Source: Pseudomonadota bacterium (GTDB taxonomy: Bacteria > Pseudomonadota > Gammaproteobacteria > Steroidobacterales > Woeseiaceae). Taken from it: a stretch of DNA of 64,000 bases. Position numbers and translations under genes: made by a program. Below the pieces are notes generated by a model. It saw only the letters and a program-made list of their open reading frames with translations, was not told the DNA's origin and searched no databases. Below, piece after piece: positions 5,464-36,563 of the stretch (the first letter of the stretch is position 1; each line of letters opens with the position of its first letter). Location: contig JADFSP010000005.1 of NCBI GenBank assembly GCA_022560695.1, forward strand, positions 296-64,295, written 5' to 3'.

Positions 5464-5546
5464 GGTAGCAGGTGGGGGAGTTATTCTGCGGAAGTAAAGC
5501 GCAGCGCAGCGAGCCATGACGCAGAATAACTCCCCCACCTGCTACC
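5464..5546. repeat. perfect 27-bp inverted repeat with 29-nt loop
   Basis: ggtagcaggtgggggagttattctgcg (5464-5490) is the exact reverse complement of 5520-5546. It lies between the convergent ntrC remnant and the pyrD-like gene. Confidence 0.9.
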
Positions 5547-5602
5547 CAAGTCGAAGGCAGTGCGATTGGCGAGGCAACGATTATTCGCGGAGTGTCCCTG
5601 CG

Positions 5603-6556
5603 CTAGAGAGCCAGCGTTCCGACTAACCCGGCAACCGATGACATTTCATGTCGCTTTAAATAGTCGCTAATGCCGGCATTGATCTTCACGCAAACCAGAG
5701 GATCGTAAAACAGCGCGGTGCCGACGCCGACGGTCGTTGCGCCGGCGATAAGGAACTCGAGCGCGTCCTCCGCTGTCACGATGCCACCCTGGCCGATGAT
5801 CGGCACATTGTGTGGTCCGGCCACTTCATACACTTCTTGTACCTTGAGCAGCGCGATCGGTTTGATGGCTGGTCCTGACAGGCCGCCGTGCACGTTGCCG
5901 ATGACGGGCTTGCGGCGTTCGACGTCGATCGCCATGCCCGTCACGGTATTGATGACAGCTAGTCCGTCGGACCCGGCTTCGATGCAAAGACGCGCATTCT
6001 CGCGTATGTCGGTCTGATTCGGCGACAGTTTGGTGATGATCGGTTTGCTCGTCTGTGCGCGACACGCCTCGACCACGCGGGCCGACATCTCCGGAACATT
6101 ACCGAATTGCACGCCGCCTTCCTTGATGTTCGGACATGAAATGTTGATTTCGATTGCGTCAATTGCCGAGTCGTCGAAACGTCGTGTTACCGCGGCATAG
6201 TCTTCGATCGTCGATCCACAGACGTTGGCCATGAAGCGGGTCTCGCTGAAGTCCAGGCCCGGCAGGATTTCGTCAACGACCGTGTCGACGCCCGGATTTT
6301 GCAGGCCGATCGCATTGAGCATGCCCATCGGAGTTTCAGAGATACGGTGTGGCGAATTGCCGAGCCGGGGCTCGAGCGTCGTCCCCTTGAGAACGACGGC
6401 GCCCACGTCGCGATTGGAAAAGCCCTTGACGCGCGTGTACTCCTCGCCGAAGCCGACACAGCCCGACAGCAACACGATCGGCGAGTCCATCGACAGGCCG
6501 CAATAGTCAATTCGCAAGCAGTCGTTGTTGAAGTCTGTGGCCTGGGCCATCGTCAA
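5603..6556 (-). CDS. class 1 dihydroorotate dehydrogenase-like flavoprotein (PyrD 1A/1B or DPD-B family)
   Basis: 317 aa. Motifs NAIGLQNPG, IEINISCPN (Cys catalytic base, class 1), GGLSGPAIKPIAL and GGI..AEDALEFLIAGA. Confidence 0.8.
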   Translation of the reverse strand: MTMAQATDFNNDCLRIDYCGLSMDSPIVLLSGCVGFGEEYTRVKGFSNRDVGAVVLKGTTLEPRLGNSPHRISETPMGMLNAIGLQNPGVDTVVDEILPGLDFSETRFMANVCGSTIEDYAAVTRRFDDSAIDAIEINISCPNIKEGGVQFGNVPEMSARVVEACRAQTSKPIITKLSPNQTDIRENARLCIEAGSDGLAVINTVTGMAIDVERRKPVIGNVHGGLSGPAIKPIALLKVQEVYEVAGPHNVPIIGQGGIVTAEDALEFLIAGATTVGVGTALFYDPLVCVKINAGISDYLKRHEMSSVAGLVGTLAL

Positions 6557-6664
6557 GGGCTGTCCCGATAATTAACGATAATCATGCGATGCGGCATTCT
6601 ACAGGCTCAAATCAGGCACTACATCCCGTGGAATTCCGCGTGTACGGCAACGGGTACCCACGCG

Positions 6665-8500
6665 CTACTGGTAGCCCCTCGCCTGCAGCGTGAACAGGTG
6701 TGCGTACACTCCGCCGAGCTCGAGCAGGCTGGTGTGGTCGCCACGTTCCACAATTGCGCCACTCCGCATGACAACGATCTGGTTGGCAGCGCGCACGGTA
6801 GAGAAACGATGGGAGATGAGAATGGTCATCTTGGTCGCACTTGCGTTTCGAAAATGATCGAATATGGCGGCCTCCGAGGCTGCGTCCATTGCCGCGGTCG
6901 GCTCGTCGAGAACCAGTATGTCGGCGTCGCTACGCATGAAGGCCCGGGACAATGCGATTTTCTGCCACTCCCCGCCCGACAATTCGCGCCCGCCCTTGAA
7001 CCAGCGTCCCAGCTGGGTCTCGTAGCCGTCGGGCATCTCTTCGATAAAGGGCGCCGCCATCCCGGTTTTGGCCGCTACCGCCCAGCGCTCGGCGTCGTCG
7101 ATATAACGGACATCACCCGCACCGATGTTTTCTCCGACAGAGAATTGATAGCGGCCAAAGTCCTGAAAAATAACGCCGATTCGCTGGCGCAGCGCATCGA
7201 TATCCCAGTCGTTCAGGTCGAGGCCGTCCAGCAGGATGTTGCCGCCGGTCGGCTCATAAAGCCGGGCGATCAGCTTGATCAGCGTCGTCTTGCCTGAACC
7301 GTTTTCGCCGACCAGGGCCAGGCTGTCGCCCGGTCGGATGTTGAGGTCTATGTTGCTGATTGCCGGCCGCGACGCGCCCGGGTATGTGAACGACACGTTC
7401 CTGAGTTCGAGGCCAAGCTTCGGCTCCGGCCCGCGGACAAGCCGCCCGCTGCGTTGCTGCACCTCCTGGCCAAGGTACTCATACAGGTTGGACAGGTACA
7501 GATTGTCTTCATACATGCCGCTGATCGAGGACAATATGGCGGCGACCGCCGTCTGACCCTGTCTGAACAGCAGCAGGTACATGGTCATTGCACCCAGCGT
7601 AATTTCAGCGTTGATCGTGGCGGTTACGATCCAGATGTAAGCACCGTAGAACGCTCCGGTCGAAATCAGGCCGAGTGCGAAGCCCCAGCCGTCTCGACGC
7701 AGTGTCAGGCGTCGATCCTCGGCAAACAACTTGTGGAAGATGTCCTGATATCGTTGCAGCAGCCGCGGCCCAAGCTGAAACAGTTTGACTTCCTTGACCC
7801 CGTCCTCCCTGGCGATCACGGTTTCGAGGTACATCTGCATGCGGGTGTCCGGGGAGCGCCAGCGAAACAGCTTGAAGGCATCCCCGGAAAACTTTGCCTC
7901 GGCAATGAACGCCGGCAAACCGGCGCCCATCAGGATAACGACTGCCCACGGGGAGAAGGTGAACAGCAACACGGCATAACTCGTTAGTGAAATGCTGTTT
8001 TGAACCAGGCCAAAAGTGCGATTGACCAGGCTGAGCGGCCGAGTCGATGCCTCACGCCGCGCTTGTGTCAGCTTGTCGTAGAACTCCGAGTCCTCGAAAT
8101 GCGCGAGCTGCAACGTCAGCGCCTTTTCAAGAATCATGACATTGACGCGCTGCCCGAGGAGTGCGCGCAGCAAGGACTGGCTTGCCGACAGGCCACGCTG
8201 ACTGGCCGCGACCGCCGTGACGACGAGGGCTTCGAGCACAACCAGCCACAAGATCCGGCGGGTGTCCGGCGAGTCGGATGACATCGCGGCCACAACCCCG
8301 TCGACGATGAGCTGCCCGATATAAGCGATCGCGGCAGGCAGTACGCCAGCGATCACGGTCAGGATAGCCAGCGTGAAGGTCAGGAACCGGCTCGTCGTCC
8401 AGACGAGCGTCATGGCGCGACGGCTGTACCCGAACACGCCCAGCGCACGCTGCAAAAACTTCACCGGACGTTCGTCCGTGATTGGTACGGCGTGAATCAT
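6665..8500 (-). CDS. ABC exporter, fused permease/ATPase (MsbA-like family)
   Basis: 611 aa. Six-TM N-terminal half, then Walker A GENGSGKTT, signature LSGGEWQKIALSRA and Walker B ILVLDEP. Confidence 0.85.
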   Translation of the reverse strand: MIHAVPITDERPVKFLQRALGVFGYSRRAMTLVWTTSRFLTFTLAILTVIAGVLPAAIAYIGQLIVDGVVAAMSSDSPDTRRILWLVVLEALVVTAVAASQRGLSASQSLLRALLGQRVNVMILEKALTLQLAHFEDSEFYDKLTQARREASTRPLSLVNRTFGLVQNSISLTSYAVLLFTFSPWAVVILMGAGLPAFIAEAKFSGDAFKLFRWRSPDTRMQMYLETVIAREDGVKEVKLFQLGPRLLQRYQDIFHKLFAEDRRLTLRRDGWGFALGLISTGAFYGAYIWIVTATINAEITLGAMTMYLLLFRQGQTAVAAILSSISGMYEDNLYLSNLYEYLGQEVQQRSGRLVRGPEPKLGLELRNVSFTYPGASRPAISNIDLNIRPGDSLALVGENGSGKTTLIKLIARLYEPTGGNILLDGLDLNDWDIDALRQRIGVIFQDFGRYQFSVGENIGAGDVRYIDDAERWAVAAKTGMAAPFIEEMPDGYETQLGRWFKGGRELSGGEWQKIALSRAFMRSDADILVLDEPTAAMDAASEAAIFDHFRNASATKMTILISHRFSTVRAANQIVVMRSGAIVERGDHTSLLELGGVYAHLFTLQARGYQ

Positions 8501-25905: not shown

Positions 25906-27279
25906 CTACGGCCCATAAATCTTGCCCGGCAACCAGGTAACGAGCCCGGGAAAAATGGCCAACAGCAGCAACGCGAAGAGCTGAATCGCGACGAATGGAA
26001 TCACGCCGCGATAGATTTGCGCTGTCGTCACACTCGGCGGCGCAACACCACGCAGATAGAAAAGCGCGAAGCCGAACGGCGGCGTCAGGAACGACGTCTG
26101 CAAGTTGATCGCGATCATGATGCCGAGCCAGACCGGGTCGAGACCCATCGACAGCAGCACCGGGCCGACGATCGGCACGACGACGAACGTGATCTCGATG
26201 AAGTCGAGCACGAAGCCGAGCAGGAACATGACGAGCATGACGACGATGACGGCACCGACGACACCGCCGGGCAGAACTTCCAGTATGGCCCTGACACCGT
26301 CATCCCCGCCGTAGCCGCGAAACACGAGCGAGAAGATCGACGCGCCGATCAGAATCAGAAATACCATGCTACTGATGCGCAGCGTACTGAGCATGATTGA
26401 CTGCAAGCGGGCGAGCCCCAACTGGCGGCGCATCAGGGCCAGCAGCAGCGCACCCATGCCGCCGACGCCGGCCGCCTCTGTCGGGGTTGCGACACCCGCA
26501 AGAATCGAGCCCAAAACGGCAAAGATCAAACACAGCGGCGGCAAGAGCGCACGCAATATCTGGCCGAGGGATACCCGGTCACCCGGTTCGCGCTCATGCG
26601 GCGGCATCACCGACGGCCGGATCAATGCCGTAATCAGGATGTACGCGATGTAGAAAACGACGAGCAGCAAGCCGGGTATCAAAGCGCCGGCGAACAGATC
26701 ACCGACCGACACGGTCCTGGGCGAGAAGTTGCCCATCTCGAGCTGCGCCTGCTGATAGGCGGACGCCATGACGTCGCCAAGCATCACCAGGATGATTGAC
26801 GGCGGAATGATCTGGCCCAGCGTGCCGGACGCGCAGATGATTCCAGTCGAAATTTCGGCTGAATAGCCCCGCCGCAGCATGGTCGGCAGGGACAGCAGGC
26901 CCATCGTCACGACCGTCGCACCGACAATACCCGTGCTCGCCGCAAGCAGCATCCCGACCACGGTCACGGATACGCCAAGCCCGCCGCGCAACGAGCCGAA
27001 CAAGCTGCTCAGCGTTTCGAGCAATTCCTCGGCGATGCGCGCTCGCTCGAGTGTGACGCCCATGAAAACGAACAACGGCACGGCGACAAGCGTTTCATTG
27101 GTCATGATGCCGAAGATGCGATTCGGCAAACTGGACAGCAACGCGTCGTTGAAGACTCCCGCCGCGATGCCGACGCCCGCGAACACCAGCGCGGTGCCGC
27201 CCATCGTGAACGCAACCGGAAAGCCCGCCAGAAGGACCATGATGACCGCGGCGAACAGCAGTAGTGCAACCCACTCCAT
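25906..27279 (-). CDS. TRAP transporter large permease (DctM)
   Basis: 457 aa polytopic membrane protein with a typical DctM pattern. Confidence 0.85.
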   Translation of the reverse strand: MEWVALLLFAAVIMVLLAGFPVAFTMGGTALVFAGVGIAAGVFNDALLSSLPNRIFGIMTNETLVAVPLFVFMGVTLERARIAEELLETLSSLFGSLRGGLGVSVTVVGMLLAASTGIVGATVVTMGLLSLPTMLRRGYSAEISTGIICASGTLGQIIPPSIILVMLGDVMASAYQQAQLEMGNFSPRTVSVGDLFAGALIPGLLLVVFYIAYILITALIRPSVMPPHEREPGDRVSLGQILRALLPPLCLIFAVLGSILAGVATPTEAAGVGGMGALLLALMRRQLGLARLQSIMLSTLRISSMVFLILIGASIFSLVFRGYGGDDGVRAILEVLPGGVVGAVIVVMLVMFLLGFVLDFIEITFVVVPIVGPVLLSMGLDPVWLGIMIAINLQTSFLTPPFGFALFYLRGVAPPSVTTAQIYRGVIPFVAIQLFALLLLAIFPGLVTWLPGKIYGP

Positions 27280-27281
27280 CG

Positions 27282-27803
27282 TCAGCCCTTCCTGATGATG
27301 GCCAGCGAGCGCAGCAACAGCGCCACACCCTGAAGCGCAACGGCGATTGGCATCAGGAGCACCATCGACTTGAGCATCGGTATCAGGGGATAAGGCAGGC
27401 CGCCGGATTCACGCGACGCCTCGTGCAGCGACCACGATACGGCGACGAAGTCATATGCCTGATAAGCCAGGAATGCGCACAGCGGCAGCAGGAACAATAC
27501 GGACCCGGCAATGTCGATCCACGCACGACGCGTGACGCTCAGCTCGCGATAGAAGATGTCGACGCGCACGTGATCTTCTCGTTGCAAGGTGTACGCGGCG
27601 CCCATCATGAAGACCGCCGCGTGCATCCAGATCACCGACTCCTGCAGCCAGATGAGGCCGGCATCGAATACATAACGCATGACGACAATGACGAATGTCG
27701 TGATGACCATGATCAGCGTCAGCCAGGAGATCACCCGGCCCGTAGCAATGCTGATACGGTCGAGCAGCTGCGCCGCCGCCTCGTTAGCCGATGGAGCGCT
27801 CAA
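27282..27803 (-). CDS. TRAP transporter small permease (DctQ)
   Basis: 173 aa, four TM segments, immediately upstream of dctM. Confidence 0.8.
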   Translation of the reverse strand: MSAPSANEAAAQLLDRISIATGRVISWLTLIMVITTFVIVVMRYVFDAGLIWLQESVIWMHAAVFMMGAAYTLQREDHVRVDIFYRELSVTRRAWIDIAGSVLFLLPLCAFLAYQAYDFVAVSWSLHEASRESGGLPYPLIPMLKSMVLLMPIAVALQGVALLLRSLAIIRKG

Positions 27804-32939: not shown

Positions 32940-34562
32940 CTACTGTTCCCAGACCACACCGATGACGAACTGGTTACGACTGTAGTCGTTGCGTGTGTCG
33001 TTCGATACCGAGTCACGAAGTTCGAACTCGGCAAGCAGGCTCAGGCGATCCGTCATCCTGTAAGTCGCAGCAACTTCCGCGCGCGTGGCTTCCAGCGTCT
33101 TGTTGCCGATGGCCGGGTCGTTGAAAGCGAACGCATTTGCAAAGTCGTAACTTCGATGGGAGGCCGATACGTCAAGCTTGAAGCGTGCGCCCGCCGACCA
33201 GTGAAATTCGACTTCAAAGGCGTTGCGGATGTAATCATTGTATCCGGCATGTTTGTCCTGTCGGTCGGTACGTTCGTAACCGAAGCCGAACCACATGTTT
33301 GGTGTAATCCGTTGCCGCGCCAGCAGGCCCAGCCCGATATAGTCGTAACGCAGCGTCGCGTTGCCCAGCCGCTGTTGTCCGTCGAGATCGAAGGAGGGGC
33401 GATCACCATAGCGGCGACTCTGTTTTTCGACCGTGAGGCGCAGCAGCGATGACGGCGCGAAACGGTACTGCACGTCGACGCCGAGCAGAAAATACTCGTG
33501 GTCATACCCGGGGGCCGCAACAACATCCTCGTAATTCCACAATTGGCCTTTTAACCGTGCGCCGACTGAAATCTTCTCATGCGACTGGCGGAACTTGATC
33601 TCGGGACCGTAGCGCAGGTAATTCAAGCGATCCCCCACACTGACGCCGCCGACGTTGCGGATGGCGCCGTCATCCGGGTCGTAGTAGGTCTCGTCATGCT
33701 GCGCAACCTTGAAGGCGCTGTACACCTCGCGAGTCCGTGTGCCTTGCTGGCGCCGAAAATGACTGCCGAAACTCGCCTCGTGCACGAACTCGTTGGCGTT
33801 CGTCAGCGCCTTGTCCTGGTAGTAACGGCCCCTGAGACGGTAGGCACCGAAAAACGACTCATGCGGAAGGCTGTTGATCGTGTACTTTGCACGCAGATCG
33901 ATCGGCAGGTACGCGCCGGACTGAATGACGGGAGTGACAAGTGGCAGATTCGGGTCCGCAAAATCGACATACGATATGTCCGGTGCCCGGAATACGTTGC
34001 TGTCATTGCCAAAACTGACGCTGGCACGAAAGTCGAACTCGCCGAGCTTCTTGTGCTTGCGCTGCTGCCCGGGACGCGCCGCGGCAGCATCCGCCTGTCT
34101 GCGCCGCGAGCTTAGCCGGGCGATGGCGCGCCGCGCCAGCTGCGCAATTTTCGTGTTCTGCTGTTGATCGCGCGCCAGCCGGAACCAGCGCAGCGCCTCA
34201 TCGGTATCACCGCCAGCGTACGCATTCAGACCGAGATTGTAGTGCGCCAGGACCCGAAGTCTCGGCGACTCCGCGGCCTTCCGCAGTGACTGCTGCGCAC
34301 GTACGTGTTGTTGCGCGCGGTAATGGGCGACGCCGCGGTTGTAGTGCAACAGCGGCGTGTCCATGCCCTGTTCGGCAGCCTCTTCGTAGCGCAGAAGCGC
34401 GGCCCAATACAGGTCGTCGCGAACCAGCCGGTTGCCCTCGGCAAACAGCTCGCGGGCGGTCTGGGCTAGCGCCGGGCTGACGGCGAGCGAGCATGCCAGG
34501 ATCGCCGCCAGCGCCGCTACGCTACCGGGATACCGGCGCTTCGATGGATTGGTCGTCAACAA
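32940..34562 (-). CDS. outer-membrane protein: signal peptide + TPR domain + large C-terminal beta-barrel
   Basis: TTG start at 34562 or 34559 gives MTTNPSKRRYPGSVAALAAILACSLAVSPALA/QT. TPR-like helices cover about aa 40-170. A basic linker is followed by about 370 aa of alternating-hydrophobicity strands rich in Y/F/R/D/N (SVSFGNDSNVFRAPD...RNQFVIGVVWEQ). Confidence 0.7.
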   Translation of the reverse strand: MLTTNPSKRRYPGSVAALAAILACSLAVSPALAQTARELFAEGNRLVRDDLYWAALLRYEEAAEQGMDTPLLHYNRGVAHYRAQQHVRAQQSLRKAAESPRLRVLAHYNLGLNAYAGGDTDEALRWFRLARDQQQNTKIAQLARRAIARLSSRRRQADAAAARPGQQRKHKKLGEFDFRASVSFGNDSNVFRAPDISYVDFADPNLPLVTPVIQSGAYLPIDLRAKYTINSLPHESFFGAYRLRGRYYQDKALTNANEFVHEASFGSHFRRQQGTRTREVYSAFKVAQHDETYYDPDDGAIRNVGGVSVGDRLNYLRYGPEIKFRQSHEKISVGARLKGQLWNYEDVVAAPGYDHEYFLLGVDVQYRFAPSSLLRLTVEKQSRRYGDRPSFDLDGQQRLGNATLRYDYIGLGLLARQRITPNMWFGFGYERTDRQDKHAGYNDYIRNAFEVEFHWSAGARFKLDVSASHRSYDFANAFAFNDPAIGNKTLEATRAEVAATYRMTDRLSLLAEFELRDSVSNDTRNDYSRNQFVIGVVWEQ

Positions 34563-34641
34563 GAAAAGCTGCGCTCCCGCCGCCTGCGTTATGTCAGCTG
34601 CAAGAATCACCGAAAATGCGCGCAAAAACCATGACGTAGCG

Positions 34642-34679
34642 CAAGAAAATCCCCCCCGCCTGTAAATCAGGCGGGGGGG
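34642..34679 (-). terminator. strong GC hairpin + T-tract (terminator/attenuator) between the acidic-protein gene and the OMP gene
   Basis: 12-bp stem cccccccgcctg/caggcggggggg with a 5-nt loop. On the minus strand it is followed by ATTTTCTT. Confidence 0.6.
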
Positions 34680-34735
34680 CAGTTGTTCGGAGTCGTGTGT
34701 TGATCGGCCAGCCGATCAATGATTGCCCTGGCGGC

Positions 34736-35170
34736 TCAGTCGATGCCGTCACCACTCTCGTCACCCGATTCTTCGCCGCTCATGCCGTCCTCGACGACAT
34801 CGTCTTCGACATGCTCGTCATCCTCGAAATCACCGTCTTCCTCGAGGTCATCTTCTTCCTCGAATTCACTCTCGCCATCGAAGCCATCGTCGCCGTCGCC
34901 GTCATCGTCCAGCTCATTCGCGAGGTCGTCATCGACATCGCCGTCATCAGCCTCGTCGCTTTCGTCGTCGCCGTCGGTGCCGCCATTCGACTCGTTGCTC
35001 TCGGGACCACGCATTTCGGCCATCATGCCGTCGAGATCGGCATCGTCATCGAGAACCTCCATCGTGACGTCGAAACCCTCGAGGTCGTCATCGTCGGCAC
35101 GCACAGTGGCCGGAAACATAGCCAGGCACGTCAGTGCCAGTGTCCAGACAAACACGTGTAAATGTTTCAT
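34736..35170 (-). CDS. secreted hyper-acidic low-complexity protein
   Basis: GGAG is 7 nt before the ATG. Signal peptide MKHLHVFVWTLALTCLAMFPATVRA. The mature 119 aa contain 61 Asp/Glu, one Arg and one His. Confidence 0.6.
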   Translation of the reverse strand: MKHLHVFVWTLALTCLAMFPATVRADDDDLEGFDVTMEVLDDDADLDGMMAEMRGPESNESNGGTDGDDESDEADDGDVDDDLANELDDDGDGDDGFDGESEFEEEDDLEEDGDFEDDEHVEDDVVEDGMSGEESGDESGDGID

Positions 35171-35216
35171 GGCATTACTCCATTAACAATTTGCGGACAT
35201 CCGGTCCGCCTTGAAT

Positions 35217-35852
35217 TCAGGATACGTCCACGCGCAGGCGGAACGTCCGGTTGCGCTCATTGTGTTGCAAGTGCGCGATCAGCTCGCCGCCTGTCGGGGT
35301 CAGCGCCACGAGCGTCAGTGGCAACAGGTTTCGGCCCGCCTTGAGGCTTGTTGTCCACGTAATCTCGCGCTGCCCCGGGAAACCGGCAAGTTCGATGCCG
35401 TCGGGCAACGACAAGGTCAGCGTCGCACCGTCCAGCGCTGTTGCCGATGCGAACACGAGGTTGATCGTGCGCTCCTCTTCGAGCGCAATGGTCACGCCCG
35501 GTATCGACGCGAGCGCGTCGGGCGTCTGCGGCACATCCGGCAACAGGCCGAAGATCACCCAGGCAGCGAGCCCCGCCGCGACGGCCGAGCCAAAGCCACT
35601 CAATAGCCAGCGATTGCGCTGCCGGCGGCCGCCTTTGTGCGTTGCGCGCACAAGGGCTCGATCGTAGAAACCTGCCTGAGCCTGTGGCACGGGATAATCT
35701 CCTAGCAATCCACGCAGTTCGCGCGCGCGCTCGATGACGGCGCGGCAGGTCTCACAGGTTCCGGCATGGCTTGCAATCGCCTCTGCTGTCGCCTGATCCA
35801 GACCACCATCCATGTAGTCATCGAGCTTCTCGGTTAAGTCTTTGCAGTGCAT
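35217..35852 (-). CDS. anti-sigma factor (zf-HC2), single-pass membrane protein
   Basis: N-terminal H-x3-C-x2-C (HAGTCETC), a TM helix (WLLSGFGSAVAAGLAAWVIFGLL) and a periplasmic domain of about 110 aa. Confidence 0.8.
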   Translation of the reverse strand: MHCKDLTEKLDDYMDGGLDQATAEAIASHAGTCETCRAVIERARELRGLLGDYPVPQAQAGFYDRALVRATHKGGRRQRNRWLLSGFGSAVAAGLAAWVIFGLLPDVPQTPDALASIPGVTIALEEERTINLVFASATALDGATLTLSLPDGIELAGFPGQREITWTTSLKAGRNLLPLTLVALTPTGGELIAHLQHNERNRTFRLRVDVS

Positions 35853-35887: not shown

Positions 35888-36427
35888 TCAGGAAAAGGTT
35901 CCATCGGGGCTCAATATATCCCGCAGACGCGCCCTGGCGCGGTGCAGGCGTGACTTGATGGTGCCGACCGGAACACCGGTAATATCCTGAATTTCCTTGA
36001 GTTTATAGCCTTCGGTATCGTGCAGTAGCACGATCAGGCGATGCTCCTCGCTGAGCTGACCCAACGCCGCGTCGAGCCGCATGAGGTTCTCCAGGCGCTC
36101 GATGTCGGTCACAGGATCCAGGTCGCCGGCGAGGTCCGCCAGCCCCGCTCCCGGCAAATGCCCCTCATCAACGAGGTGCATGCGCTGGCGCGTGTAGCGC
36201 CGGTGCTGATCCACGAACAGGTTGTACATAACACGGCTGAGCCAGGAGCCGGGCTCCTCGATCGCAACGAGATCGTCAAGCAAGCCGTAGGCCTTGACGA
36301 GCAACTCCTGGAAAAGATCCTCGGCTTCGGCCTTGTTGCCGGTCAGCCGCCACGCGAGGCGATACAGGCGGTCGAAATGCGGCCGCACGATGCGCTCGAA
36401 GTTGAGATTCTGCTCCGCATTGCTCAT
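35888..36427 (-). CDS. ECF-family RNA polymerase sigma factor
   Basis: Region 2 (FDRLYRLAWRLTGNKAEAEDLFQELLVKAY) and region 4 (GYKLKEIQDITGVPVGTIKSRLHRARARL). ATG at 36427. Confidence 0.85.
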   Translation of the reverse strand: MSNAEQNLNFERIVRPHFDRLYRLAWRLTGNKAEAEDLFQELLVKAYGLLDDLVAIEEPGSWLSRVMYNLFVDQHRRYTRQRMHLVDEGHLPGAGLADLAGDLDPVTDIERLENLMRLDAALGQLSEEHRLIVLLHDTEGYKLKEIQDITGVPVGTIKSRLHRARARLRDILSPDGTFS

Positions 36428-36563
36428 TGTGCGATCGAGTGTATCGTCAGGCAGGCTTGCCGCAAGGATGCGTTCGGCACTTCGTAGCGATCGCTGCAGC
36501 CGCCAGGCTGTACGATCTGCGAGGTGCGCGGACCATGAGCGCAGGGCGGGATGAGGGATTTTC

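Follow-up and report, generated by a model that had tools for sequence, protein, structure and literature searches.

A conserved, extremely acidic and putatively exported protein of Woeseiaceae, encoded beside an ECF sigma/anti-sigma pair and a predicted TPR-barrel

Background

In two-partner secretion the cargo, TpsA, carries its recognition element directly behind the signal peptide, and its dedicated barrel, TpsB, which has a periplasmic recognition domain, is encoded by the adjacent gene. RseB/MucB, CnrX and MucE are periplasmic partners of anti-sigma factors. Calsequestrin, the Asp-rich matrix proteins of shells and corals, poly-D/E chaperones of the DAXX and Hero type, and the anionic loops of Neisseria LbpB all act through dense negative charge; the functions served by such charge are low-affinity, high-capacity cation binding, interaction with minerals, neutralisation of cationic peptides and the solubilising of clients. 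Woeseiaceae, to which the DNA studied here belongs, are among the most abundant bacteria of marine sediments.

Our search of the literature on acidic periplasmic proteins with ECF systems or in Woeseiaceae yielded only papers on type XI secretion and one on a Caulobacter protein, CaBP. In type XI secretion, the cargo has a C-terminal, eight-stranded, TbpBBD-like beta-barrel as its targeting domain, and 16-stranded, PgaA-like matches to PF04575, a family that also catches PgaA, are set apart from the 14-stranded type XI proteins (TXISS) (PMC8406197). In Caulobacter vibrioides, CaBP is a Sec-exported, periplasmic acidic protein with three EF-hands that is genetically coupled to SigV (PMC13171946). 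The locus described here appears from its sequence to be a module of four envelope genes, the parts of which are named in databases just 'hypothetical protein' or 'TPR protein'.

The acidic gene and its product

The gene lies at 34736..35170 on the reverse strand of the window, by which we mean the whole stretch of 64,000 nucleotides that was analysed. It starts with ATG, has its stop codon within this span, and encodes 144 amino acids including the signal peptide. An earlier note on this DNA, made from the letters alone, had cautioned that all three antisense frames were open and that the coding call needed support. The caution was justified because antisense frames are open in the window, two of them fully (34697-35161 and 34719-35186) but the third for only 114 codons. 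Comparison with relatives bears out the coding call: the sense frame is intact in 67 of 67 orthologues, whereas the antisense frames are mostly broken (intact in 23, 20 and 5 of the same 67). Furthermore, the start codon, the Shine-Dalgarno site, the signal peptide and the motifs described below are kept in the sense frame only, and length differences among intact copies always preserve that frame. Third-position wobble is present, with codon-position entropies in motif 1 of 0.73/0.62/1.46; one antisense frame comes close in synonymous fraction (0.42), as it shares its wobble position with the sense frame. The codon-usage comparison that had been proposed points the same way, as the choice of Asp and Glu codons and the GC3 of the gene resemble those of its neighbours. 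The ORF is a real, conserved protein-coding gene. Its Shine-Dalgarno sequence, GGAG (35178..35181, reverse strand), is exactly 7 nt 5' of the ATG, as had been claimed, and a similar site is found at -17 to -4 in 64 of 68 orthologues.

Cleavage after TVRA (residue 25) would leave a mature chain of 119 amino acids. Recounting gave 39 Asp and 22 Glu, one Arg, one His and no Lys, the same as the 61 acidic residues and the basic residues reported before, together with 17 Gly and only 22 aliphatic or aromatic residues; the chain has a GRAVY of -1.40 and a charge of -60. This extreme acidity is conserved and is not an accident of a single sequence, for 62 intact orthologues have a like composition, with mature-chain medians of 36% Asp, 22% Glu, 0% Lys and 2.5% Arg and net charges ranging from -48 to -125. 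The identical protein is present on 23 metagenome contigs and is indexed in 31 collection blocks.

The signal peptide (35096..35170, reverse strand; residues 1-25) starts with MK, continues with a hydrophobic core (hydropathy 1.66 in a 19-residue window) and ends in V-R-A followed by Asp. The Sec signal with TVRA cleavage that had been proposed thus has the n/h/c layout of Sec/SPase I substrates. The family consensus is MKxLxxFxAxLALTCxAxFPAxAxA, and position -1 of the cleavage site is Ala in 54 and Ser in six of the 60 copies scored. No orthologue has RR within its first 12 residues, the feature looked for as a sign of Tat export. A lipoprotein signal (SPase II) was rejected, since Cys occurs in just 29 of 61 copies and has no lipobox context: it stands in (A/V)LTC, with Thr at -1, and more hydrophobic residues and the A-x-A come after it. 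AlphaFold2, run with a 47-sequence alignment, predicts a helix at residues 2-26 (pLDDT 86) and otherwise no fold and no strands; the mean pLDDT is 61, values past the signal peptide are 52-62, and a weak helix is placed at residues 43-52. The description of the protein as an exported, intrinsically disordered polyanion holds, because the signal layout, the conserved sense frame and the lack of a predicted fold agree with it, as does the acidic composition; by sequence and model, the product is predicted to be Sec-exported, disordered and polyanionic. No EF-hand or other Ca-binding domain was matched in Pfam even at E<=10. The DADLDG of the window's motif 1 was considered against the canonical 12-residue EF-hand loop, D-x-[DNS]-x-[DNS]-G-x-[ILV]-x-x-x-E, and rejected: the family does not conserve its first and third Asp or its Gly, and position 12 has no Glu.

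A profile of the signal peptide plus motif 1 retrieved the family as 194 clusters at 50% identity from 70 species-level genomes, and the genome loci compared in this study are those recovered by this motif-1-based search. All 70 genomes are labelled Woeseiaceae/Woeseia or only at higher ranks; judged from these sequences, the family was previously unannotated and appears to be confined to Woeseiaceae. Neither Pfam nor NCBIfam has a domain that matches the protein, a homology search by N-terminal profile returned unnamed short fragments only and no cultured representative, and a sequence search of the PDB gave no match at E<=10. Orthologous ORFs vary from 123 to 258 amino acids, leaving out one frameshifted copy of 61 amino acids (locus L081).

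Three parts of the chain are conserved. Motif 1 (35000..35095, reverse strand; residues 26-57, DDDDLEGFDVTMEVLDDDADLDGMMAEMRGPE) is the best-kept part of the family, with the N-terminal family motif DDLDDLDVTMEVLDD..D.DG..EMRGP; L33, V35, T36, M37, V39, M53 and P56 are at least 90% conserved in it, and G55 is invariant. A variable poly-Asp/Glu/Gly linker follows (34889..34999, reverse strand; residues 58-94), in which the alignment consists mostly of gaps. Next come hexad repeats, each of one hydrophobic and about five acidic residues, that end in motif 2 (34787..34888, reverse strand; residues 95-128; the degenerate copy in the window is DFEDDEHVEDDVVED), and the DNA of the hexad region has an 18-nt period, repeated three times at 34816-34869 and 2.1 times at 34872-34909. 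This second family motif, the hexad/"FEDGEDVDDDEFD" motif, has the consensus E(E/D)DFE(D/E)GED(V/I)D(D/E)DE(F/Y)D, and its core is found in 57 of 68 orthologues. The C-terminal tail (34739..34786, reverse strand) ends in GDGID; the third conserved piece is this D-D-hydrophobic end, of the family form D-D-[V/I/A]-x, with Asp at -3 in 45 and Val or Ile at -2 in 25 of 68 copies. The earlier picture of a polyanion with almost no hydrophobic core is therefore right as to the scarcity of hydrophobic residues, but the chain is not featureless: it appears to be more than low complexity, with three short motifs set in variable poly-Asp/Glu sequence. Composition drifts while the motifs stay, as in L083, which has 30% Asp plus Glu and keeps motifs 1 and 2, and in P0008 (37%), which keeps motif 1. 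Disordered proteins with a folded binding partner typically show such a pattern.

Operon context

Upstream of the acidic gene lies a gene for an anti-sigma factor (35217..35852, reverse strand) with a zf-HC2 match, the H-x3-C-x2-C signature and one TM helix (around residues 82-104). Its periplasmic domain of 107 amino acids, at residues 105-211, matches no known family, gave nothing useful in a sequence search of the PDB, and is acidic in all species (net -1 to -9). The ECF sigma gene (35888..36427, reverse strand) encodes 179 amino acids from a conserved ATG, with Pfam matches to Sigma70_r2, r4_2 and ECF, and has also been gene-called in metagenomes. The anti-sigma gene is upstream of the acidic gene in 65 of 70 loci, and the sigma gene is present in 64 of 70. 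The gap between the anti-sigma and acidic genes is 46 nt in the window, with a median of 31.5 nt and a range of -4 to 87 nt in 66 loci, so that in some species the two genes overlap by 4 nt. A sigma-70-like promoter, TTGCGG-N16-TACACT (36438..36465, reverse strand), ends around 13 nt 5' of the sigma ATG; it is a conserved block in an alignment of more than 60 upstream regions, and the corresponding regular expression has 29 matches upstream of sigma and two elsewhere. At the other end, 57 nt past the stop of the acidic gene, there is an intrinsic terminator (34643..34679, reverse strand), CCCCCCCGCCTG-loop-CAGGCGGGGGGG plus ATTTTCTT, in which a hairpin of 12 bp, 11 of them G-C, precedes a T-run. 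Orthologous intergenic regions have an equivalent C-run/G-run hairpin and T-run, with different stem sequences. The genes are co-directional, with a short or overlapping gap and a terminator behind them. The operon membership that had been claimed therefore stands, but the gene is not in the interior, and comparison of the loci indicates that it usually closes a three-gene operon, behind the ECF sigma and zinc anti-sigma (ZAS) genes.

Three species appear to have lost the sigma/anti-sigma pair at this locus and to have kept the acidic and barrel genes. Their loci (L079, L082 and L083), all on long contigs, have no similarity to sigma or anti-sigma within 7 kb even at E=10, and what they retain is the terminator, the conserved intergenic element described below, the barrel gene and an acidic gene in which both motifs are present; in L082 the operon promoter still stands ahead of the acidic gene.

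The downstream outer-membrane protein

The next gene (32940..34562, reverse strand) encodes a putative outer-membrane protein of 540 amino acids with a signal peptide, three TPR repeats and a predicted 16-strand beta-barrel; the TPR domain spans about residues 36-161. Pfam gives SlipAM/PF04575 at 29.9 and 31.2 bits (cutoff 22) and TPR_2 at 29.1 bits; the PF04575 match is marginal, because most orthologues have only TPR or BBP2_2 matches in precomputed tables. The AlphaFold model has 16 long strands at residues 174-539 (mean pLDDT 81), and Foldseek matches it to porins and BcsC; the BcsC structure 9b8a matches it over its full length (593 columns, E 7e-10), with a TM-score of only 0.35. The best 120 matches listed in a homology search with this protein are all orthologues. 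The barrel gene is 3' of the acidic gene in 69 of 70 loci, and the single exception is cut by a contig end. The junction between the two genes exceeds 400 nt in two of 67 loci, one of which is L081 with its frameshifted acidic gene, and the junction between the barrel and UvrD genes does so in 18 of 64, with extra ORFs where examined.

A conserved element 5' of the barrel gene (34586..34640, reverse strand) is a candidate promoter or regulator site: CGTCAT[AG]GTTT was matched 36 times here and once at another place in the 1.7 Mb scanned on both strands. Because the terminator and this separate element lie between them, the acidic and barrel genes are not simply co-transcribed. The element matches no Rfam family, and a structured RNA or riboswitch was set aside on that ground; a Pho box was rejected as a misfit, the Pho-box-like half-sites being around 42 nt apart. 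A promoter shared by the sigma and barrel genes was likewise rejected, since their conserved upstream blocks differ. We also discarded the idea that a basic barrel binds the polyanion electrostatically. In the window the barrel protein has a pI of 9.44 and a net charge of +13, but in 59 species the median is -7 (range -21 to +14) and the correlation with the charge of the acidic protein is rho 0.06; positive charge is not conserved, so there is no general electrostatic match between the two proteins.

Possible roles of the acidic protein

We tentatively favour, at somewhat less than even confidence, the reading that the acidic protein is a partner or cargo of the TPR-barrel, as suggested by sequence comparison and structural models. 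The barrel gene is next in every testable locus and is retained after regulator loss, and its product is built like the porins that export polymers or proteins (TPRs and 16 strands, the BcsC match and the weak PF04575 match). Covariation of motif 1 is weak with the TPR domain and absent with the anti-sigma factor. In partial Mantel tests on 46 species, with UvrD divergence controlled, motif 1 gave r=0.18 (p=0.009) against the TPR domain and r=0.14 (p=0.05) against the barrel, a weak signal drawn from four comparisons, the other two being sigma (r=-0.07) and the anti-sigma periplasmic domain (r=-0.03). Against a partnership, gene order conserved within a single family could be due to shared ancestry alone, and known type XI cargo, with its C-terminal eight-strand barrel, is unlike the acidic protein (PMC8406197).

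If the two proteins are partners, we infer that three parts of the acidic protein would dock on the periplasmic TPR domain of the barrel protein: motif 1, immediately past the site of signal-peptide cleavage, the hexad repeats with motif 2, and the D-D-hydrophobic end. The barrel might then thread the acidic chain, still unfolded, through to the surface or the medium, or keep it on the inner side of the outer membrane, in the way that linear charged polymers are handled by TPR-porins of the BcsC/PgaA/AlgE type, or, alternatively, as in a two-partner or type XI system with adjacent cargo. Once placed, the poly-Asp/Glu chain would work by bulk charge on Mg2+/Ca2+, metals, mineral surfaces or cationic compounds, and the ECF pair would couple its production to an envelope signal. 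A more specific and distinctly unlikely version makes the protein a gene-encoded polyanionic polymer, a protein counterpart of alginate, which would dock by the motif behind its signal peptide, be threaded unfolded by the exopolysaccharide-porin-like TPR-barrel, and bind Ca2+/Mg2+, metals or mineral grains on the surface.

None of the described export systems fits fully. As in type XI (Slam/DUF560) systems, there is an outer-membrane protein of around 540 amino acids with N-terminal periplasmic TPRs and a barrel above the PF04575 cutoff, and a Sec-exported protein is encoded adjacent to it. However, the barrel here is predicted to have 16 strands rather than 14 (PMC8406197), the acidic protein lacks both a C-terminal eight-strand barrel/TbpBBD domain and a lipobox, and the host is free-living in sediment and not host-associated. 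A canonical Slam/type XI pair was rejected on the absent cargo domain and the 16 predicted strands. The exopolysaccharide export porins (BcsC, PgaA, PelB; AlgK/AlgE) share the TPR and 16-strand barrel arrangement, with 9b8a as the Foldseek match, and a presumed substrate that is a linear, unfolded, highly charged polymer. In contrast to these, the barrel protein here has three TPRs only and low TM-scores (around 0.35), the candidate polymer is a ribosomally made polypeptide, and no synthase or polysaccharide genes were found among the called genes of the 12.4-kb loci around the acidic gene. Two-partner secretion is similar in the element behind the signal peptide, the dedicated barrel with a periplasmic domain and the gene adjacency, but here TPS and POTRA domains and an Omp85 fold are all absent, and the cargo gene comes first; no homology to two-partner secretion was detected. 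A handover to the TPR-barrel, if true, would mean that small TPR-porins can handle disordered polypeptides and would join exopolysaccharide export with type XI secretion, and threading would be a new minimal route of outer-membrane protein secretion with a new class of cargo.

It is rather unlikely that the acidic protein instead stays in the periplasm as a soluble polyanion, an output of the ECF system that is independent of the barrel. It could there serve as a buffer for divalent cations or metals, as fixed negative charge (compare the anionic periplasmic glucans), as a sponge for polyamines or cationic peptides, or as a holdase of the poly-D/E kind that maintains the solubility of envelope proteins; Ca/metal buffering, mineral control, a cationic-peptide decoy and a matrix role, as listed in the earlier note, are all possible. 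A signal peptide without a recognisable outer-membrane targeting domain, the tight sigma/anti-sigma operon with its short gaps and 3' terminator, and the extreme, conserved net charge with Lys almost absent are consistent with such a role, and in Caulobacter an ECF sigma factor is genetically coupled to an acidic, Ca-binding protein of the periplasm (PMC13171946). CaBP resembles the present protein in being small, acidic, Sec-exported and genetically coupled to an ECF sigma factor, but it is folded (PMC13171946), whereas the acidic protein here is EF-hand-free, predicted to be disordered and unrelated in sequence. Bulk charge leaves the three sequence motifs unexplained, and the two orthologues that have lost much of their acidity still keep motif 1, one of them motif 2 as well. 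Neither an EF-hand nor another binding domain was found in the Pfam search, and the acidic gene stays with the barrel gene where the regulators are lost. The eukaryotic polyacidic proteins and the LbpB loops have no homology to this protein, which would be a bacterial envelope protein with motifs of its own. If it does remain periplasmic, it would be a dedicated protein polyanion controlled by a stress sigma factor, a rarity among bacteria, and would bear on how cells in sediments balance cations, attach to minerals and resist cationic compounds. Whichever reading holds, the family is a clean test case of function in short motifs inside extreme low-complexity sequence.

A role as a signalling accessory of the anti-sigma factor is improbable. 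In such a role the protein would resemble RseB/MucB, CnrX or MucE: as a ligand or co-regulator in the periplasm, it would govern how the anti-sigma factor is proteolysed, either by binding or through cation-dependent release. Like those partners it would be periplasmic and encoded by the third gene of an ECF operon, a position it holds in 64 loci out of the 67 whose upstream sequence is long enough to tell, and its short motifs could bind the family-less periplasmic domain of the anti-sigma factor. That domain is itself acidic, however, and motif 1 co-varies neither with it nor with sigma, although strong covariation links these two (partial r 0.58). The acidic protein has no sequence or predicted structural similarity to RseB/MucB, CnrX or MucE, neither Pfam nor NCBIfam showing any similarity to RseB/MucB or CnrX, and it is kept without the regulators in three species. 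Finally, the explanation that the ORF is a chance product of GAN-rich DNA, or that an antisense ORF is the true gene, draws on the open antisense frames of the window and is extremely improbable, being already contradicted by the conservation and codon usage of the sense frame.

Surrounding genes

The neighbours of the acidic and barrel genes are, besides the sigma and anti-sigma genes, those for UvrD, TrkA/TrkH, a methyltransferase, EamA, CtaB and SURF1. Elsewhere in the window, a peak of AT skew at 26-28 kb corresponds to two TRAP transporter membrane genes.

Coding status of the acidic ORF

On the minus strand, the ORF at 34736-35170 is a real gene. Its product is an exported, disordered, motif-bearing polyanion; within an ECF operon the gene comes last, and its place beside the gene for a TPR-barrel protein is fixed. 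The 144-aa product begins MKHLHVFVWTLALTCLAMFPATVRA and continues DDDDLEGFDV...GDGID. Cleavage at residue 25 leaves a mature chain of 119 aa, with 39 Asp, 22 Glu, one Arg, one His and no Lys (GRAVY -1.40), and a GGAG lies 7 nt ahead of the ATG; the coordinates, residue counts and GGAG spacing given in an earlier note were all reproduced.

Because every frame of the antisense strand also has a long ORF, the coding call required independent support, as that note had cautioned. The sense frame proved to be the conserved one: it contains no stop in 67 orthologues, whereas only 23, 20 and 5 of the 67 lack stops in the respective antisense frames. In the ungapped motif region, nucleotide entropy by codon position is 0.73/0.62/1.46, and 64 of 68 copies have an SD-like site. 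Asp and Glu codon choice (GAC 0.64, GAG 0.59) and GC3 (0.68) are like those of the neighbouring genes. The identical protein was read on 23 metagenome contigs and is indexed in 31 collection blocks.

Many metagenome copies shift frame into tails rich in Thr/Lys/Met or Arg (proteins P0009, P0030 and P0053; loci L031 and L046). These copies fit error-prone assembly of GAN repeats and are no argument against coding; such repeat DNA appears prone to sequencing and assembly frameshifts, and family members are often mis-predicted as a result.

Extent of the family

A word-seeded homology search found eight relatives with a common signal peptide and a motif of about 30 residues, followed by acidic tails of differing length. 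An exhaustive profile search using the first 55 positions only yielded, at the 50% identity level, 194 clusters with E<=1e-3, of which 115 reached E<=1e-10. Nearly all matches start at residue 1 of proteins of 80-226 aa, and in the cluster tails D+E makes up a median 48% and K+R 4%. A scan of one genome per species gave 70 loci. All are in metagenome-assembled genomes labelled Woeseiaceae/Woeseia (Woeseiaceae being a family in the gammaproteobacterial order Woeseiales) or given only as unclassified Gammaproteobacteria/Proteobacteria, with one labelled Chromatiales. The family is larger than 70 loci, because the scan relied on a single peptide pattern that misses even the window's own EGFDVTMEV; for the same reason the scan does not show the family to be missing from cultured Woeseia. 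The acidic protein matched nothing in Pfam and NCBIfam or in a PDB sequence search, and family members, where named in the sources at all, are called 'hypothetical protein'. The family is unannotated and lineage-specific.

Signal peptide, motifs and disorder

N-termini in the family are consistent with a Sec/SPase I signal, with Lys at residue 2 in 50 of 62 copies and Ala (54/60) or Ser (6/60) at position -1; none of the N-termini contains a twin arginine. A lipoprotein signal was ruled out, Cys being present in only 29 of 61 copies and in a context that is not a lipobox. AlphaFold2, run on a 47-sequence alignment, predicted no more than the signal helix and a weak second helix (43-52), and pLDDT elsewhere was 52-62. 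The Sec-type signal, the computed charge of -60 of the mature chain and the lack of a predicted fold past the signal helix support the disordered secreted polyanion described in the earlier note.

Three conserved pieces stand within the variable poly-Asp/Glu/Gly chain. Motif 1, immediately past the cleavage site, reads DDLDDL(D/E)VTMEV(L/I/V/F)DD..D.DG...EMRGP(E/D); conservation is at least 90% at L33, V35, T36, M37, V39, M53 and P56 and complete at G55. The second piece consists of six-residue repeats, each of one hydrophobic and about five acidic residues (an 18-nt period in the DNA), ending in motif 2, E(E/D)DFE(D/E)GED(V/I)D(D/E)DE(F/Y)D, the core of which is found in 57 of 68 orthologues; the window has a degenerate copy, DFEDDEHVEDDVVED. 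The third is the C-terminal end, D-D-[V/I/A]-x, with D at -3 in 45 of 68 copies. In 62 intact orthologues the mature chain has 100-207 aa, a net charge of -48 to -125, and median contents of 36% D, 22% E, 0% K and 2.5% R. The motifs appear to be under stronger constraint than the composition, because two less acidic relatives retain them: L083 (30% D+E) has both motifs and P0008 (37%) has motif 1.

Two aberrant relatives were also seen. P0002 (L085, 3001-3276) is a 91-aa allele of the window protein without residues 30-82, motif 1 included, with a DDDL-coding repeat on either side of the deletion. As it occurs on only one 5.7-kb contig, 280 nt from the contig end, a collapsed assembly or a rare variant is the probable explanation. 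In P0033 the family N-terminus (signal peptide and motif 1) is fused to a sequence like sigma-70 region 4, probably in a chimeric contig.

Gene order and control regions

All genes of the locus lie on the minus strand, in the order ECF sigma factor (35888-36427), anti-sigma factor (35217-35852), acidic gene, barrel gene (32940-34562), and then UvrD and TrkA/TrkH. The anti-sigma factor combines a zinc motif (H-x3-C-x2-C) with a single transmembrane helix and a periplasmic domain of 107 aa that matched no known family. This order is common to the 70 loci (sigma 64, anti-sigma 65, barrel 69, UvrD 66, TrkA 55), and absent genes are accounted for by contig ends except in three species (L079, L082 and L083); the window's upstream neighbours are rare (methyltransferase 5, EamA 3). 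Median gaps are 30 nt for sigma/anti-sigma, 31.5 nt for anti-sigma/acidic (down to a 4-nt overlap), 156 nt for acidic/barrel and 127 nt for barrel/UvrD. Of 64 barrel/UvrD junctions, 18 are longer than 400 nt, and the gaps examined hold extra ORFs; of 67 acidic/barrel junctions, only 2 are that long. From these junction lengths and neighbour counts, the four genes from sigma to barrel act as one unit whose flanks vary. An additional small gene, beta-barrel-like and encoding about 200 aa (MKF...AYRFGGSF...), lies after the barrel gene and ahead of UvrD in at least four species (L016, L056, L071 and L076); the window has no copy of it.

A putative operon promoter, TTGCGG-N16-TACACT (36438-36465, minus), ends about 13 nt before the sigma ATG. 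The corresponding block, CCTTG-N16/17-TAnACT, is kept in at least 29 species, with a conserved AAAnTGCCAAC block further upstream. It resembles a sigma-70-type promoter, and its short distance to the ATG would leave the mRNA nearly leaderless.

A strong terminator (34643-34679, minus) follows the acidic gene, and a strongly conserved element of about 55 nt (34586-34640, minus) lies between it and the barrel gene, with equivalent sites in loci L015-L081. Across species the spacer contains a C-run/G-run hairpin with differing stems, a T-run, and then GCCACGTCATAGTTTTG-N~14-cGGTAaCCTTgc-ATCTGACATAAC. The element's core, CGTCAT[AG]GTTT, occurs 36 times at the spacer position and once elsewhere in 1.7 Mb. 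Its half-sites look like Pho-box repeats but lie about 42 nt apart, and it could instead be an ECF-type promoter; an Rfam search with it gave no match. Because this element differs from the block ahead of sigma and a terminator follows the acidic gene, the regulators and the acidic gene appear to share a transcript, and the barrel gene to be under its own putative control region. In L028 the spacer has, about 170 nt past the acidic gene, some three tandem units of about 45 nt that include the C-run arm of the terminator hairpin.

The barrel protein

AlphaFold (38-sequence alignment, mean pLDDT 81) predicted three TPRs at about 36-161 and 16 long strands at 174-539 of this 540-aa outer-membrane protein. 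Foldseek against the PDB returned generic 16-strand porins and a full-length alignment to BcsC, the cellulose export subunit; TM was low for all of them, about 0.35. The cutoff of 22 bits for Pfam SlipAM/PF04575, the 'Slam' family of type XI secretion, was passed weakly (29.9-31.2 bits), and this model also picks up the 16-strand PgaA (Grossman et al., PMC8406197). Type XI barrels have 14 strands, and type XI cargo carries a C-terminal 8-strand barrel (Grossman et al., PMC8406197). The protein is thus Slam-sized but, with 16 strands, PgaA/BcsC-like in predicted topology. No polysaccharide genes were found among the called genes of the 12.4-kb loci around it.

The candidate partner of the acidic protein

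Three observations favour the barrel protein over the anti-sigma factor as partner. First, L079 (218-kb contig), L082 (103 kb) and L083 (236 kb) retain the acidic gene, terminator, element and barrel gene, and a search of 14 kb around each gene detected no similarity to sigma or anti-sigma at a cutoff as loose as E=10. L082 still has the operon promoter, about 190 nt ahead of the acidic gene; it also has a VOC/glyoxalase-like ORF where the regulators would sit (region ~5500-7000 in the three loci). Second, the acidic/barrel junction is the most stable. Third, in partial Mantel tests over 46 species, with UvrD distances controlled, the covariation of motif 1 was r=0.18 (p=0.009) for the TPR domain and r=0.14 (p=0.05) for the barrel, and there was none for sigma (-0.07) or for the periplasmic domain of the anti-sigma factor (-0.03); positive controls behaved as expected (anti-sigma/sigma 0.58, TPR/barrel 0.41). 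This covariation is suggestive only, because it is weak and four tests were run. Simple electrostatics do not account for a pairing: the basic pI of 9.44 in the window's barrel protein is exceptional, the median net charge over 59 species being -7, and all species have an acidic anti-sigma periplasmic domain.

We tentatively favour, at somewhat less than even chances, a mechanism in which the motifs would dock the acidic chain on the TPR domain, the barrel would export the chain or hold it at the outer membrane, and the chain so placed would act by its charge on cations, minerals or cationic compounds. This would work like TPR-porin polymer export, and like type XI and two-partner secretion with their adjacent cargo, although the acidic/barrel pair falls outside all three classes. 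Of the readings considered, export of a protein polyanion over the outer membrane via a mini EPS-type porin is the most novel, and it is improbable. Relative to the earlier note, which was made from sequence only, the new findings are the conserved motifs, a four-gene module kept throughout the family and the candidate barrel partner.

Apparent co-transcription with the regulators would also suit a periplasm-resident polyanion that is simply the ECF output, the barrel not being involved; we consider this unlikely, about one chance in four. A role as co-regulator of the anti-sigma factor, the immediately preceding gene, is more doubtful still in view of the three species that keep the acidic gene without the regulators. 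That the ORF is a non-gene or masks an antisense gene is scarcely credible with a sense frame open in all 67 orthologues. The remaining probability goes to something else.

Elsewhere in the window, an AT-skew peak (0.29, 26-28 kb) corresponds to two very hydrophobic TRAP-transporter genes (DctM- and DctQ-like; 25906-27803, minus); it reflects the composition of membrane proteins and is not unusual.
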